Assembly: GCA_026396175.1 (NCBI GenBank) | Contig: JAPLXG010000006.1 | Location: forward strand, 76,492-140,491 | From: Candidatus Moraniibacteriota bacterium | GTDB taxonomy: Bacteria > Patescibacteriota > Minisyncoccia > Moranbacterales > UBA2206 | DNA length: 64,000 bases | Direction: 5' to 3' | Shown here: positions 44,415-53,154 of the stretch, piece by piece | Position numbering within the stretch: the stretch's first letter is position 1 | Layout: every line of letters starts with the position of its first letter | The notes under the pieces: generated by a model | Seen by the model: the letters and a program-made list of their open reading frames with translations, nothing else | Database searches by the model: none | Told to the model about the DNA's origin: nothing | Translations under genes and position numbers: made by a program

Positions 44415-44527
44415 ATCCCGCACCAATTTCGAATAAAGTATTTCATAGCTGATAGTTTTATTCACGGAATCGCCTGCGGCTTAGTTTTAAGATGATATAT
44501 AATTAAATTTGCAAATTGGTGCGGGAT
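44415..44527. repeat. Family G MITE-like element copy 1 upstream of rpsL (TIR ATCCCGCACCAATT/AATTGGTGCGGGAT; core TTCACGGAATCGCCTGCGGCTTAGTT)
   Basis: 14-bp perfect TIR and 26-bp core identical to copy at 53042-53154. Confidence 0.7.
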
Positions 44528-44562
44528 TGGCATTTTGTTGCTACTCGTACCTCATAGACAAA

Positions 44563-44982
44563 ATGCCAACAATCAATCAATTAAAGCGAAAATCCCGAAA
44601 GTCGGTCAAAAGCAAGTCTAAAACGCCTGCTTTTAAACATGTTTTTAATACTTTGAAAAACAAGCCGGTTCTCACAAACAGTTCATTCAAGCGTGGAGTA
44701 TGTTTGAAAGTGAGCACAACTACACCAAAAAAACCTAACTCAGCTTTGCGAAAAATTGCCAGAGTTCGTCTGACCAATGGAATGGAAGTAACGGCCTATA
44801 TCCCGGGAATCGGACACAACTTGCAAGAGCACTCAATCGTGATGCTCCGTGGTGGACGCGTGAAGGATCTTCCTGGTGTGCGTTATCATATCGTGCGCGG
44901 AGTTTTGGACAGCGCGGGTGTAGCGAACAGAAAACAAGGTCGCAGTAAATATGGGGCGAAGGTGGAGAAGGATAAGAAATAA
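44563..44982 (+). CDS. rpsL: 30S ribosomal protein S12 (with ~12-aa N-terminal insertion)
   Basis: [10 protein letters not shown]...[18 protein letters not shown]...[22 protein letters not shown]. Confidence 0.95.
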
Positions 44983-45110
44983 TAAGAGTTAATTTTAAAT
45001 TATTAATTTTAAATTTAAAATAAACTTTAAATTATCAAATGTTGAAATTTAAAATTTGGACATTTGGATTTTATTTAAAATTTTAAATTTAAAACTTTAA
45101 ATTATAAGGC

Positions 45111-45578
45111 ATGGCAAGAAGAAAAAGAGTATTTGATAAACACGTTAAACCTGACACGAGATATGATAATCTTTTGGTGGGTAAATTTATCAATAGTATT
45201 TTGCAAGACGGAAAAAGAACAACCGCGGAACGAATTGTTTACGAAGCATTTGATATTATTCATGAGAAGACCAAAAAAGGCGGACTAAATATTTTCGAAC
45301 AAGCTTTGAAAAATGTCGCTCCACTTGTCGAGCTGAAATCTCGCAGAGTTGGCGGCGCGAACTATCAAGTTCCAGTTCCAGTTTTGGGTGAGAGACGCAC
45401 AACGTTGGCTATTCGCTGGCTCAAAGCCACTATTTCTTCCAAGAAAGGCAAAAAGATGGCGGAAAAATTGGCAGATGAACTGATCGAGGCTTCCAACAAA
45501 GCCGGTGGCGCGATGAAAAAACGTGATGATGTGCACAGAATGGCGGATGCGAATAAGGCGTTTGCGCACTTCGCGTAG
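45111..45578 (+). CDS. rpsG: 30S ribosomal protein S7
   Basis: MARRKR...KFINSILQDGKRTTAERIVYEAF...RRVGGANYQVPV. Confidence 0.95.
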   Translation: MARRKRVFDKHVKPDTRYDNLLVGKFINSILQDGKRTTAERIVYEAFDIIHEKTKKGGLNIFEQALKNVAPLVELKSRRVGGANYQVPVPVLGERRTTLAIRWLKATISSKKGKKMAEKLADELIEASNKAGGAMKKRDDVHRMADANKAFAHFA

Positions 45579-46063
45579 GATTCTCTACGAATTACGAATT
45601 TGTACGAATGTACGAAAATAAATATAAAGTTGAAAAAGATATAATTTACCCTCAAGAAGTTTTTGAGCTTGTGGGTTTTATGTATGACGTTTGGAATAAG
45701 CTCGGTTATGGTCACAAGGAGAGTTTCTACGAAAAAGCAGTTGCTGAATTATTTAGGAAGAACGGCAAAGAATTCAAAGAGCAACTTAGGTGCAAAGTAA
45801 AAGTAGGTGAAAAAGATTTAGGATTATATGTTTTTGATTTCGTTTATGAAGAAAAAATAGTTGTTGAATTGAAGCAGGGAGACATTTTTTCCAAGCAAAA
45901 TATCAATCAGATCTATGCCTACCTAAAAGCGACTGGCTTAAAGCTAGGCTTGCTTGTGAATTTTACAAGAAAAGGTGTTAAATTTAAGAGAATCATTAAT
46001 ATAAAATAAATTTATTAGAATTAGAAGTTCGTACATTCGTACAAATTCGTAATTCGTAGAAAA
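45579..46063. mobile_element. Candidate insertion cassette: GxxExxY gene bounded by 34-bp inverted repeats of family A (CTCTACGAATTACGAATTTGTACGAATGTACGAA / TTCGTACATTCGTACAAATTCGTAATTCGTAGAA)
   Basis: Right arm 46031-46063 is reverse complement (33/34) of left arm 45583-45616; cassette splits rpsG from fusA. Confidence 0.45.
45608..46009 (+). CDS. GxxExxY family protein (PD-(D/E)xK-like small protein)
   Basis: Motif LGYGHKESFYEKAV (G-x-x-E-x-x-Y); 133 aa typical for family. Confidence 0.7.
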   Translation: MYENKYKVEKDIIYPQEVFELVGFMYDVWNKLGYGHKESFYEKAVAELFRKNGKEFKEQLRCKVKVGEKDLGLYVFDFVYEEKIVVELKQGDIFSKQNINQIYAYLKATGLKLGLLVNFTRKGVKFKRIINIK

Positions 46064-46067
46064 AGAA

Positions 46068-48155
46068 ATGGCCAGATTATACCCAATCGAAAAGTATCGT
46101 AATATCGGAATCATCGCGCACATTGACGCGGGAAAAACTACCACGACTGAGCGCGTGTTGTTCTACACTGGAATCACGCACAAGATTGGTGAAGTTCACG
46201 AGGGTGCGGCGACGATGGACTGGATGGAGCAGGAGCAAGAGCGCGGAATCACCATCACGTCGGCAGCGACAACTTGTTTTTGGAAAGATTGCCAAGTGAA
46301 TATCATCGACACTCCCGGTCACGTTGACTTTACGGTTGAAGTTGAACGGTCACTGCGCGTGCTGGATGGCGGCGTGGTTGTTTTTGATGGAAAAGAAGGT
46401 GTCGAGCCTCAATCAGAAACGGTGTGGCGTCAGGCGGACAAATATAACGTGCCACGCGTATGCTTCATCAATAAAATCGACAAAGAAGGCGCTGATTTCT
46501 ATTACGCCTTGCGCACGATTTGGGATCGCTTGACTCCAAACGCTGTCGCACTGCAAATTCCAATCGGAGAACGCGGTGATTTTGTCGGTGTGGTGGATTT
46601 GATTAAGATGAAAGGCTATACTTTTGCCGGAGAAATGGGCATCGATGTGATTGAAGGAGAAATTCCTGCCGAACTTTTGGATAAAGCGAAAGAGTGGCGA
46701 GAGAAAATGGTGGAAAAAGTTTCTGAAACGGATGACGCGCTCACGGAAAAATTTTTGAACGGCGAAGAAATCTCACAAGAAGAATTGAAAGCGGCGATTC
46801 GTCGCGCGACAATTGCGACAAAATTAGTGCCAGTTTTCACTGGAACAGCCTTGCGAAATAAAGGCGTGCAGTTAGTGCTTGATGCCGTTGTTGATTATTT
46901 ACCTTCCCCACTGGACGTGCCAGCTATCAAAGCGACTGATGTGCGGGATGAAACAATTGAAATTGAAGTGAAACAACAAGACGACGCGCCTTTTGCGGCA
47001 CTAGCTTTCAAGGTGGCGACTGACCCCTATGTCGGACAATTAACTTTCTTTCGAGTATACTCGGGAGTTTTGAAAGCCGGATCATATGTTCTCAACTCTT
47101 CCAAGAATGAAAAAGAACGGATCGGACGAATTTTGCAGATGCATGCTAATCACCGTGAAGAAATTTCGGAAATTTATGCCGGAGGGATTGGCGCTTTGGT
47201 TGGAATGAAAAATACAACTACCGGAGACACGTTATGCGACATTGAAAAACCAGTGCTTTTGGAAACAATTACTTTTCCCGAACCAGTGATCTCGATTGCC
47301 ATTGAACCAAAGACGAAAGCCGATCAAGAGAAAATGGGATTTGCTTTGCGAAAATTGGCCGAAGAAGATCCAACTTTCAAAGTGCGCACTGATGAGGAAA
47401 CCGGGCAAACAATTATTTCCGGAATGGGCGAATTGCATTTGGATATTATTGTGGATCGGATGAAACGTGAATTCAAAGTGGAAGCGAATGTTGGTCAACC
47501 ACAAGTGGCATATCGTGAAACGATTCGCGTTAAAGCGGAAGCGGAAGGCAAATATATCAAACAATCGGGAGGTCGCGGACAATATGGACATTGCTGGATG
47601 CGTGTTGAACCGCAAGAGCCAGGCAAAGGTTTTGAATTTGTTAGTGAAATCAAGGGTGGAATCATTCCGCAAGAATATATCACGCCGATTGAAAAGGGTG
47701 CGAAAGAAGCGATGGACTCGGGAGTGGTGGCGGGTTACCCAATGGTGGACATCAAAGCGACAGTTTATGACGGATCATATCACGAAGTGGACTCCTCGGA
47801 AGCAGCTTTCAAAATTGCTGGATCAATGGCCTTCAAAGAAGCTTGCCGAAGGGCAAAACCAATGCTTTTGGAACCTATCATGAAAGTACAAACCATCACG
47901 CCGGAAAATTTTATGGGGGATGTTGTTGGTGACCTTAACGCGAAACGCGGAATTATCAAAGAAATGGGCGACCGCGGCGAAGGCAATGCGCGCGTGAAAG
48001 TGATCGACGCCGAAGTGCCGCTATCTTCTATGTTCGGTTATGCCACACAACTGCGTTCGATGTCACAAGGCCGTGCCAACTACGCGATGGAATTTTCCCA
48101 CTACGCCGAAGTGCCAAAGAATGTGGCGGAAGAGATTTCGGGAGGGAAGAAATAA
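46068..48155 (+). CDS. fusA: Elongation factor G
   Basis: [28 protein letters not shown]; 695 aa. Confidence 0.95.
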
Positions 48156-52219: not shown

Positions 52220-52230
52220 TTTTTTCTTTG

Positions 52231-52373
52231 CCCAACACTAAATTTCACCAGAAAAACAGCAATTCTATATTCGCATGTCCCCCATTCGTAGCGGGGGTTT
52301 GCGAAGCAAATAACGAGAATTTGACGAAACAGATTTCATGTGTTACAGTTCTCAAATGTGAAATTAGTGTTGG
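52231..52373. repeat. Family H element copy 2 (16-bp TIR CCCAACACTAAATTTCAC / GTGAAATTAGTGTTGG) enclosing a family E hairpin (52267-52314)
   Basis: TIRs perfect; TIR sequence related to 11951 element TIR CCCGCACTAACTTTGCAC. Confidence 0.65.
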
Positions 52374-52428
52374 ATTGTAGAGGAAATTGAGGCAAAAATA
52401 AGTTTTATTTAAAAATTCGCATAAATTG

Positions 52429-52755
52429 ATGTCAAAGAACGAAGAAGAGGTAAAATCAAGAATCAGAATCAAGATTAAGGCTTATGATCACAAGATTATT
52501 GATCAATCAGCCCGTCAGATTGTCGACACTGCGCAGAGGTCAGGTGCCAGCATTGTGGGACCAGTTCCTTTGCCTACCGAAATTCGCAAATTTACTGTCA
52601 ACAAGTCCACATTTGTGCACAAAGATGCTCGTGATCAATATGAAATGCGGATCCACAAGCGACTGATTGACATTATGAGCCCAACACCAAAAACAATTGA
52701 TAGCTTGACCAATTTAGATTTACCAGCAGGAGTGGATATTGAAATCAAGATGTGA
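52429..52755 (+). CDS. rpsJ: 30S ribosomal protein S10
   Basis: [39 protein letters not shown]...[19 protein letters not shown]. Confidence 0.95.
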
Positions 52756-52758
52756 TTT

Positions 52759-52913
52759 CCTCTACGAGAATCTCTACGAACTACGAATAAGTACGAATAT
52801 ACGAATGATTTTAGAAAAACTTTCTTAAACTCATTCAAACTTACTGTTTAGGATTAGTATATTCGTAAAAATTCGTAGTTCGTAGAGAAAACTAAATTCG
52901 TAATTCGTAGAGA
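52759..52913. repeat. Family A palindromic element in the unusually long rpsJ-rplC spacer
   Basis: Arms CTCTACGAACTACGAATAAGTACGAATATACGAAT / ATTAGTATATTCGTAAAAATTCGTAGTTCGTAGAG are reverse complements. Confidence 0.65.
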
Positions 52914-53041
52914 AACTAGTTAAAGTCCGTGCCCGGGTGTCGGTGTCGCCGGATACTAATCTAGCCAAGAAAGAAATTTCTTAACCTTTGAGAAGAGGTT
53001 TTCGGCTGGTAGTGGCCGTTTTTTATTTTATTAAAGGTCTG

Positions 53042-53154
53042 CCCCGCACCAATTCCGAAGATAGATTTTTCCAAGATAAAAATTTTTTCACGGAATCGCC
53101 TGCGGCTTAGTTAATAAGAACTATTGAAATTTATATATAGAATTGGTGCGGGAT
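53042..53154. repeat. Family G MITE-like element copy 2 upstream of rplC
   Basis: CCCCGCACCAATT ... TTCACGGAATCGCCTGCGGCTTAGTT ... AATTGGTGCGGGAT. Confidence 0.7.

Follow-up and report, generated by a model that had tools for sequence, protein, structure and literature searches.

The stretch of DNA analysed here (64,000 nucleotides, hereafter the window) comprises positions 76,492 to 140,491 of the forward strand of contig JAPLXG010000006.1 (assembly GCA_026396175.1) of Candidatus Moraniibacteriota bacterium. Two of its ribosomal protein (r-protein) genes, rpsL (start codon ATG at 44563) and rplC (ATG at 53194), are each preceded by one copy of a repeated element. A preliminary description, made from the sequence alone, had classified this repeat as a miniature inverted-repeat transposable element (MITE)-like unit and had proposed that it acts as a mobile promoter or leader module, or else as an autoregulatory leader of r-protein genes. 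Our analyses provide good support for a family of structured leader RNAs, apparently undescribed, whose mechanism we infer from its structure and genomic position.

The 26-nt core of the element, TTCACGGAATCGCCTGCGGCTTAGTT, occurs exactly twice in the window, as noted previously, at 44461-44486 and 53087-53112, in both cases on the + strand (0 occurrences expected, 100 shuffles). It lies between complementary arms of 12-13 nt, and the arm AATTGGTGCGGG and its complement are confined in the window to 44417-44428/44514-44525 and 53043-53054/53141-53152. The terminal inverted repeats of 14 nt originally assigned to both copies are true of copy 1 only; the left end of copy 2 is GCCCCGCACCAATT, and 12 nt are common to both. 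When the full 64 kb was searched with a covariance model (R1, built from 27 sequences) with filters off, only these two copies were found, at 146.7 and 157.9 bits, whereas their reverse strands scored 29-38 bits (copy 1 reverse: 38), compared with 147-158 bits on the + strand. Each copy folds far better than its shuffles (z -4.6), and the likeness of the two continues for about 45 nt beyond the right arm and takes in a second hairpin, with the ATG.

Copy 1 as a whole (domains HP1 and HP2; 44407-44570, + strand; 146.7 bits, E 9e-34) ends at the rpsL start. The 5' strand of its P1 helix (UCCCGCACCAAUU; 44416-44428) pairs with the 3' strand (AAUUGGUGCGGGA; 44514-44526), and between them lie a UUCG segment with a variable P2 hairpin (AAUAAAG...UUUUAUU; 44429-44462, a hairpin in RNAfold), the conserved core CACGGAAUCGCCUGCGGCUUAG (44463-44484), containing a GCC-UGC-GGC mini-hairpin at 44472-44480, and an AU-rich single-stranded linker (44485-44513). 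In the minimum free energy (MFE) fold, HP2 (CAUUUUGU ... ACAAAAUG; 44531-44565) carries the rpsL AUG (44563-44565) in its 3' strand. Copy 2 (53033-53200, + strand; R1 match of 157.9 bits, E 1.7e-36) ends at the rplC start and is built in the same manner: a P1 5' strand (CCCGCACCAAUUC; 53043-53055) pairing with 53140-53152 (GAAUUGGUGCGGG), a CG(AA) segment with the P2 hairpin (53056-53088), a core identical to that of copy 1 (53089-53110), an AU-rich linker (53111-53139), and HP2 (GCUCAUAAUUGU ... ACAAUUAUGGC; 53155-53198) with the rplC AUG (53194-53196) in its 3' strand. Compared with copy 1, the lower stem of HP2 in copy 2 is altered on both sides, from UUUU/AAAA to UAAUU/AAUUA. A short Logan contig (L006) is identical in sequence to the window at copy 2.

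Both copies are in sense orientation closely before r-protein starts, as had been reported, with the right arm 37 nt (rpsL) and 41 nt (rplC) upstream of the ATG. We also confirmed that open reading frame (ORF) callers run both genes upstream through the element, to TTG-started ORFs at 44509 and 53143; the element explains these over-extended ORFs and thus allows the gene calls to be corrected. The gap between the rpsJ stop and the rplC start is 438 nt (52756-53193), as stated earlier.

Architecture and distribution of the family

The leader unit is about 165 nt long and consists of two domains. HP1 (about 110 nt) comprises, in order: (i) an invariant P1 helix, (ii) a UUCCG segment, (iii) a variable P2 hairpin, (iv) a 22-nt core, and (v) an AU-rich strand of about 29 nt. 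P1 is a closing helix of 12-14 bp between (U/C)CCCGCACCAA(A)UU and AAUUGGUGCGGG(A/G), which is 97.6% paired among 82 members; its closing pair is exchanged between U-A and C-G in 20 sequences, and another pair between C-G and U-A in 10. The P2 segment is 30-36 nt long in all members and is not conserved in sequence (mean z -1.1). The family core reads yCACGGAAUCGCCUGCGGCUUAG and includes a 3-bp GCC/GGC mini-hairpin, whose loop measures 3-5 nt in the metagenome set selected by the arms only and whose stem is exchanged to GGC..GCC in a few related copies. The core also contains CCUGCGGCU (within 44463-44484 and 53089-53110), which presumably equals a 9-nt segment of the 3' strand of helix 45, in the near-universal 3'-terminal sequence of bacterial 16S rRNA. 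The linker (mean 29 nt, 82% A+U) is unstructured (MFE -0.6 kcal/mol, z +0.3) and bears a weak AAArUUUAAw box; the TATATA box noted in the preliminary description is present in the linker of copy 1 but is not a feature of the family, whose consensus at this place is AAArUUUAAw.

The second domain, HP2, begins 1-2 nt after HP1 and follows the scheme GCUCAUUUUUGU-AG-CUnC-(loop CUCGyyCCGCUCG)-GnAG-ACAAAAAUGGC, its 3' strand being formed by the A-rich initiation region and the AUG. Compensatory changes were found in all 15 of its 15 pairs, and 92.8% of the cells are paired. Over the whole structure, double changes occur in 29 of 41 pairs, a number reached by none of 500 shuffles, and 88.7% of cells are paired (shuffles, 80.6%; slid controls, 32-46%). 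The alignment behind these counts had been fitted to the model, which biases them towards the structure. Two mutually exclusive partners are available to the UUC that follows the left arm: the GAA just preceding the right arm, in 80-82 of 82 sequences, and the GGAA within the core, in 66-75 of 82. These alternatives may represent a two-state switch.

Several other structural or coding interpretations were considered and rejected. As an anti-sequestor pairing with the 5' strand of HP2, the linker does no better than permuted partners, and an extension of P1 into the flanks (GGCUAU/AUGCUC) as an anti-sequestor of HP2 was dismissed because no change compensates for the U-to-C exchange at +2. Pairing of the HP2 loop with the core as a pseudoknot is unsupported, because the loop varies (CUCCGCUC, GUACCUC, GCAUAGCUC) and the core is fixed. 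A hammerhead-like three-way junction lacks the CUGANGA and GAAA boxes and matches no Rfam ribozyme. The left arm resembles a tRNA 3' end (CCCGC-A-CCA), but the tRNA model does not match the module, and the pattern matches of this kind were ordinary tRNA genes (L054, L125, L154 and L158). A leader peptide starting at an AUG occasionally present 5' of the left arm was dismissed because the one-base length variation CCAAUU/CCAAAUU breaks any frame; this flank is weakly conserved.

The core 20-mer was found at 26 loci in about 18 GTDB species genomes (1-3 per genome), nearly all of them Ca. Moranbacteria, Moraniibacteriota or Patescibacteria, and the pattern of the arms with a free interior was found in at least 120 metagenome contigs. 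R1 recovered further copies beside those already found in other loci, giving a total of 96 non-redundant copies at 50 bits or more, 82 of them with E<=1e-14 (>=75 bits); the model can be used for annotation. The density is about one copy per 30-50 kb, on the order of 20 per genome by rough extrapolation from contigs. Among viral (IMG/VR) contigs the core pattern had no match and the arms pattern one, merely the end of a tRNA gene, so no genuine copy was found there. In the whole window, Rfam 15 (4227 families, gathering thresholds) recognised two tRNAs only and left the module unmatched, and at E<=10 the region 52900-53220 gave two noise matches and nothing else. No description of the module was found in the literature searched on structured or cis-regulatory RNAs and palindromic repeats of Moranbacteria and Patescibacteria.

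Genomic context, relatives and neighbouring repeats

The position of the element relative to the following gene is strikingly constant. In 61 of the 70 copies scoring at least 100 bits, the first long ORF starts between -7 and -1 from the end of the model; this start is the AUGGC of the element itself or an AUG immediately behind it. In this census, which covers contigs rather than whole genomes, about 90% of copies are in one orientation, sense to the gene, and in exact register with its start codon. The leader module of the preliminary description is supported: the unit is strand-specific and conserved, and it is joined in register to the start codons.

Clustering of the downstream proteins gave at least 47 clusters, and 70 Pfam families were recognised among 64 proteins. 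Four copies each precede genes for S7, L11, NusG and MurA, three precede L27, and two each S12, L16, S14, L28, NusB, EF-Ts and SMC; SecY, GroEL, MreB, GAPDH, Ddl, MnmA and PilC occur once each (Pfam), and reading of the N-termini adds pyruvate kinase, MraY, Obg, UvrA, ParB, L3, S5, L20 and L7/L12. This diversity, with the same element before at least 47 unrelated gene families, does not agree with the autoregulatory r-protein leader proposed earlier.

Many copies begin 10-30 nt past the stop codon of the preceding gene, and others lie behind clear promoters of the TTGACA-N17-TATAAT type (L022, L058, L037, L116, L016 and copy 1 of the window). Because copies follow promoters or upstream stop codons, the element is predicted to be made as RNA, within 5' untranslated regions (UTRs) and intercistronic regions. 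Upstream of copy 1, a sigma-70-like promoter (TTGACA-17-TATGCT; 44321-44349, + strand) is followed by a hairpin with a T-run (44354-44381); both are kept in L001, L002, L007 and L016, with or without the element. The predicted start of this rpsL promoter lies within the 5' arm of the following hairpin. In L146 (around 200-300), a CIRCE-like inverted repeat (TTAGCACTC-N9-GACTGCTAA) is located between a promoter-like site and the element before groEL.

Close relatives differ in the presence of the element. It is absent before rpsL in L001-L005, whose S12 is identical to that of the window, and from the rpsJ-rplC gap in L007-L011, whose S10 is identical. Comparison with these relatives revealed no clean insertion at either site: the whole stretch from the upstream T-run to the ATG is replaced, and neither window copy is flanked by a target-site duplication (flanks CTAT|...|ATTG and CTGC|...|ATGC). 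At rplC the AUG of the element adds two codons (MAT-KFILGKK, compared with M-KFILGKK in relatives). The rpsL genes of the window and of L016 (88% identical) carry the element at the same place, and it is retained at the same genes across lineages whose orthologues share no more than 49-92% identity. In P2 and the linker, changes have reached saturation (identity about 0.63, equal to background), and two copies from one gene or one contig resemble each other no more closely than random pairs do (same contig 0.57-0.72, background 0.63). Invariant stems and core beside saturated spacers therefore indicate purifying selection on copies in place, not recent copy-and-paste. An attempt to date transposition by clustering copies by gene or genome was abandoned, as the saturated variable parts hold no signal beyond "not recent".

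Outside Moranbacteria, related units occur in two other settings. In other Parcubacteria (L100, L053/L097, L050 and L033), HP1 and HP2 are followed by a terminator and no ORF, between convergent or divergent genes; these units look like free-standing small-RNA genes. A further subfamily, with CAGGC behind the right arm, has the same arms at the borders of discrete insertions within tRNA genes. The D-loop of a tRNA-Leu(CAA) gene in L062 (5545-5890) is interrupted by an arm-core-arm unit and by another arm-bounded unit, inside which lies an intact tRNA-Leu(CAA); when both were deleted in silico, ARAGORN called the restored tRNA-Leu from its first base, and no target-site duplication flanks these insertions. 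L055 (677-971), with a nested tRNA-Glu, behaves in a similar way, although there the exact boundaries decide the anticodon. The L062 and L055 insertions imply that arm-bounded units were inserted as DNA at some time, and an origin of the family from such hairpin-bounded units is probable; this would account for its uneven distribution among close relatives. In L143 (3787-4110), where a decayed tRNA-Asp gene with four palindromic inserts lies next to an intact one, a clean insertion was rejected, as excision in silico restored no tRNA and the gene is a degenerate pseudogene. The same arm pair also encloses intact tRNA genes as a stem, CCCCGCACC-UUUU-tRNA-AAAA-GGUGCGGGG (L055, L062 and L072). 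As RNA, such stems would by analogy resemble processing stems, and a mobile origin and a role in RNase processing may both be in play. Group I introns occur in tRNA genes of Patescibacteria (PMC13011429); neither the module nor the arm-bounded insertions in tRNA genes belong to these, since such introns need more than 200 nt and a P1-P9 core, and HP1 has about 110 nt and no Rfam match.

The surroundings of the two copies are rich in other small structured sequences. The rpsJ-rplC gap holds, besides the element, the palindrome mentioned in the preliminary description (family A; 52760-52915, + strand; long, TACGAA/TTCGTA-rich and directly after the rpsJ stop), and in addition a conserved structured RNA of about 115 nt (52917-53030, + strand) that had been missed. 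The latter is near-invariant in L007-L011, where one variable helix keeps its pairing, and has no Rfam match; it ends in an intrinsic-terminator-like hairpin with a T-run (53003-53028, + strand; stem 53003-53018), 14 nt upstream of copy 2, and looks like an attenuator inside the S10 operon. Relatives hold other palindromes at the same junctions, of the ACACAGA type in L008 and the TTCGTA type in L005, so that the turnover of small palindromic insertions in this lineage is rapid. Between 55605 and 59118 (+ strand), seven copies of another intergenic module of about 115 nt (families D1-D3) lie between successive r-protein genes, each composed of a GCGCGCUACGAACGCGC hairpin and four TTCGTA repeats, with only a few bases left to the following ATG; the corresponding gaps in L007-L010 are short. 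A further repeat family, ending in ...CCCGCCnnGGCGGGATTCGCGAAGCGAATAAC, abuts ATG starts at 23326-23397, 36130-36182 and 54721-54792 (+ strand); it holds a GCGAAGC mini-hairpin motif, which replaces the core in some related arm-bounded elements. Palindromes of the CCTGCCTACCGGCAGGCAGG type (family D7 in the window; 21545, 31363, 55613 and 59983) sit in the HP2 apex of several copies of the element, with the lower stem kept (L035 3317-3503, L032 1842-2052, L075 612-798, L061 705-893 and L155 2080-2243).

A proposed cis-acting leader and competing explanations

The interpretation that we favour, with modest confidence, is that the repeats form a lineage-specific family of cis-acting leader RNAs that would control translation initiation or RNA processing, and are not a DNA promoter or an active MITE. 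About half of Parcubacteria are reported to lack the anti-Shine-Dalgarno motif (PMC9297842). In the window, essentially no Shine-Dalgarno (SD) signal was detected upstream of 43 long ORFs, and gene starts are A-rich from -9 to -2, with U at -1 in 67%. Without SD sites, initiation depends on an open A-rich region, and since HP2 pairs this region and the AUG, it would hold down translation of the downstream gene until opened. Where the element is present, start regions are more structured than at the other genes of the window (MFE -14.4 vs. -7.7 kcal/mol) and less often unpaired (P(unpaired) 0.23 vs. 0.54), with the value for rplC (-6 to +3) as low as 0.02. We propose that each copy would be transcribed as the 5' UTR or an intercistronic part of the RNA of the following gene, that HP2 would sequester the initiation region, and that HP1 would be the handle deciding the state of HP2, by one of three routes: (i) a conserved trans partner (protein, 30S subunit or small ligand) would bind the invariant P1 and core; (ii) the AU-rich strand would serve as a ribosome standby site; or (iii) a double-strand-specific RNase would cut the P1 stem, freeing the cistron from upstream RNA and leaving HP2 as a hairpin at its 5' end. 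That P1 and the core do not vary in sequence suggests a specific partner, be it a protein, a nuclease or the ribosome.

Several observations weigh against this proposal. The gene set does not indicate one metabolite, and a trans partner or ligand of P1 and the core is hypothetical. Not only the pairing but also the sequence of P1 is conserved, which is unusual for a riboswitch P1 and fits recognition by a protein or nuclease, or a role at the DNA level. The pair counts derive from the model-fitted alignment described above. No alternative pairing between HP1 and HP2 was found, the duplex of the linker with the HP2 5' strand having an energy of -3.53, against -3.55 for permuted partners. In a short window (-45 to +12) the AUG of copy 1 is mostly unpaired (0.81), although the longer fold forms HP2. 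Finally, the free-standing units imply that the RNA may act in trans or be a product itself.

Among the alternatives, a selfish non-autonomous DNA transposon (a MITE or mobile cassette), with the arms as terminal inverted repeats for a transposase acting in trans and the UTR copies tolerated as harmless, seems unlikely to us. It would account for the relatives that lack the element at rpsL or rplC in spite of identical S12 (L001-L005) or S10 (L007-L011), for the arm sequence kept across subfamilies with different interiors, for the arm-bounded units that split tRNA-Leu(CAA) in L062, excisable in silico, and similarly L055, and for the abundance of other small palindromic insertions in the window and its relatives. 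Yet there is no target-site duplication at either window copy, and the difference from relatives at these sites is a replacement up to the ATG. The arms are not the ends of the unit, which continues into HP2 for about 45 nt beyond the right arm, and same-contig copies show background likeness only. Moreover, about 90% of copies share one orientation and the exact start-codon register, the helices covary and tolerate G-U pairs, placement at orthologous genes persists at 49-92% protein identity, and IMG/VR contigs hold no genuine copy. A transposase-encoding element with the same ends was not seen in the loci examined, among the matches listed by scans that allowed short gaps only. Of the mobility suggested in the preliminary description, activity as a MITE is thus not upheld, whereas the relatives lacking the element and the arm-bounded tRNA-gene insertions elsewhere may still reflect movement in the past. 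Nor is its wording of a MITE-like mobile promoter supported, given the missing target-site duplication, the lack of near-identical copies, a unit exceeding its arms, the fixed orientation and register, the covarying helices, the promoters upstream and the absence of a -35 site. A portable promoter, in which the AT-rich box would be the -10 site, transcription would start in the right arm and the core would act as an upstream or -35-like site, is very unlikely. Both window copies do follow terminator-like hairpins, after which a fresh transcription start would be useful, TATAAT-like hexamers occur in individual copies (44498-44503 in copy 1), and strong promoters are usual for the genes behind the element. 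The scan, however, found no sigma-70-type site inside either copy; the family box AAArUUUAAw has U (75%) at the most conserved A (second position) of the -10 site, with no -35 site 16-18 nt upstream. Many copies lie behind clear promoters or between normally co-transcribed cistrons (rpsL-rpsG, rpsC-rplP and rplJ-rplL), and a promoter would leave the covariation of HP2 and of the left and right arms unexplained.

Two further explanations place the function in the RNA. HP1 (about 110 nt) could be a small RNA, cut from the leader at P1 or made from its own gene and acting in trans, e.g., as a protein decoy, with its leader site giving co-expression with growth genes. This agrees with the free-standing copies that have their own terminator and no downstream ORF (L100, L053/L097, L050 and L033), with the arm pair that encloses intact tRNA genes (L055, L062 and L072) in the manner of rRNA processing stems, and with the sequence conservation of P1, expected of a nuclease site. 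We nevertheless judge it quite unlikely, as the Moranbacteria subfamily is locked to the start codon and its HP2 covaries with the AUG region, which a purely trans-acting RNA would not need, nor would a single such RNA need about 20 divergent copies per genome. Least probable of all appears an r-protein operator, in which one r-protein (e.g., S7, L4 or L3) would bind the core as an rRNA mimic and repress its own operon. Both window copies are indeed located before r-protein genes, and these are the largest target class (S7, L11, L27, L16, S12, S14, L28, S5, L20 and L7/L12). The same element, however, precedes the genes for MurA, Ddl, MraY, MreB, SecY, GroEL, GAPDH, pyruvate kinase, SMC, ParB and UvrA as well as pilus genes, relatives with identical S12 or S10 lack it, and the 9-nt rRNA match is within chance across all rRNA.

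Returning to the cis-acting leader, a broader version of it can be put forward as a tentative, somewhat doubtful possibility: a new class of cis-regulatory RNA, serving as a shared translational operator for about 20 housekeeping genes per genome in SD-less bacteria of the candidate phyla radiation (CPR). One partner would read P1 and the core and open or close the start-codon hairpin; the RNA would be a free-standing small RNA in sister lineages, and it would spread as a hairpin-bounded cassette, even carrying tRNA genes. If true, this would constitute a mobile, modular regulatory RNA substituting for protein regulators in reduced genomes. The CPR (Patescibacteria) have tiny genomes with few recognisable regulators. 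A strongly covarying RNA module in register with the start codons of dozens of ribosomal, envelope and chaperone genes offers a concrete way to test how these uncultivated bacteria control translation, and one family joins leader RNAs, free-standing small RNAs and hairpin-bounded tRNA-gene insertions.

Comparison with known systems

The module is a member of none of the closest known systems, i.e., the ERIC and Correia repeats, riboswitch platforms and RNase III hairpins, although it shares traits with each. ERIC/IRU of enterobacteria and Correia/NEMIS of Neisseria are transcribed intergenic imperfect palindromes of about 100-150 bp, for which effects on mRNA processing and stability, through RNase III or RNase E, have been proposed. 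The module resembles them in size, in complementary ends that would form a long RNA hairpin, in its transcribed intergenic sites, in its tens of copies per genome, and in its patchy occurrence among relatives. ERIC and Correia, however, are MITEs with TA target duplications that occur in both orientations, and the ends of Correia carry promoter hexamers, whereas the module has no duplication, one orientation, a start-codon register, a second hairpin outside the arms and an invariant core with saturated spacers, and is found at the same genes across deep divergence.

Two other groups of repeats share fewer traits with it. The REP/BIME sequences and RAYT-dependent REPINs are likewise short, interspersed, transcribed intergenic palindromes that can affect the expression of neighbours, but a REP unit is a 20-40-nt hairpin with a GTAG head present in hundreds of copies, while the arms of the module are individually not self-complementary, its copies number about 20 per genome and its core is unique. 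Integron attC sites (e.g., the VCRs of Vibrio) are imperfect palindromes of about 60-140 nt that lie in one orientation between a stop and the next start; unlike them, the module has essential syntenic neighbours (r-protein operons), lacks RYYYAAC/GTTRRRY boxes and was not seen in an integrase context.

As RNA, the P1 stem recalls the RNase III hairpins of phage T7 early genes, which are conserved double-stranded stems between cistrons of highly expressed transcripts, and the processing stems of 16S and 23S rRNA, given that the same stem encloses intact tRNAs in other CPR lineages. The module differs from processing hairpins in that its conserved interior is far larger than needed and is tied to the start codon, and cleavage here is hypothetical. 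From riboswitches it is set apart by targets that share no pathway, an invariant P1 sequence, the failure to find an exclusive sensor-platform pairing and the lack of an Rfam match. Still, like translational riboswitches and protein-binding leaders, it lies in cis and in sense, with a sensor-like multi-helix domain followed by a start-sequestering helix, and two features of the riboswitch type are present in it: a covarying structured domain and, in HP2, a platform that overlaps the initiation region.

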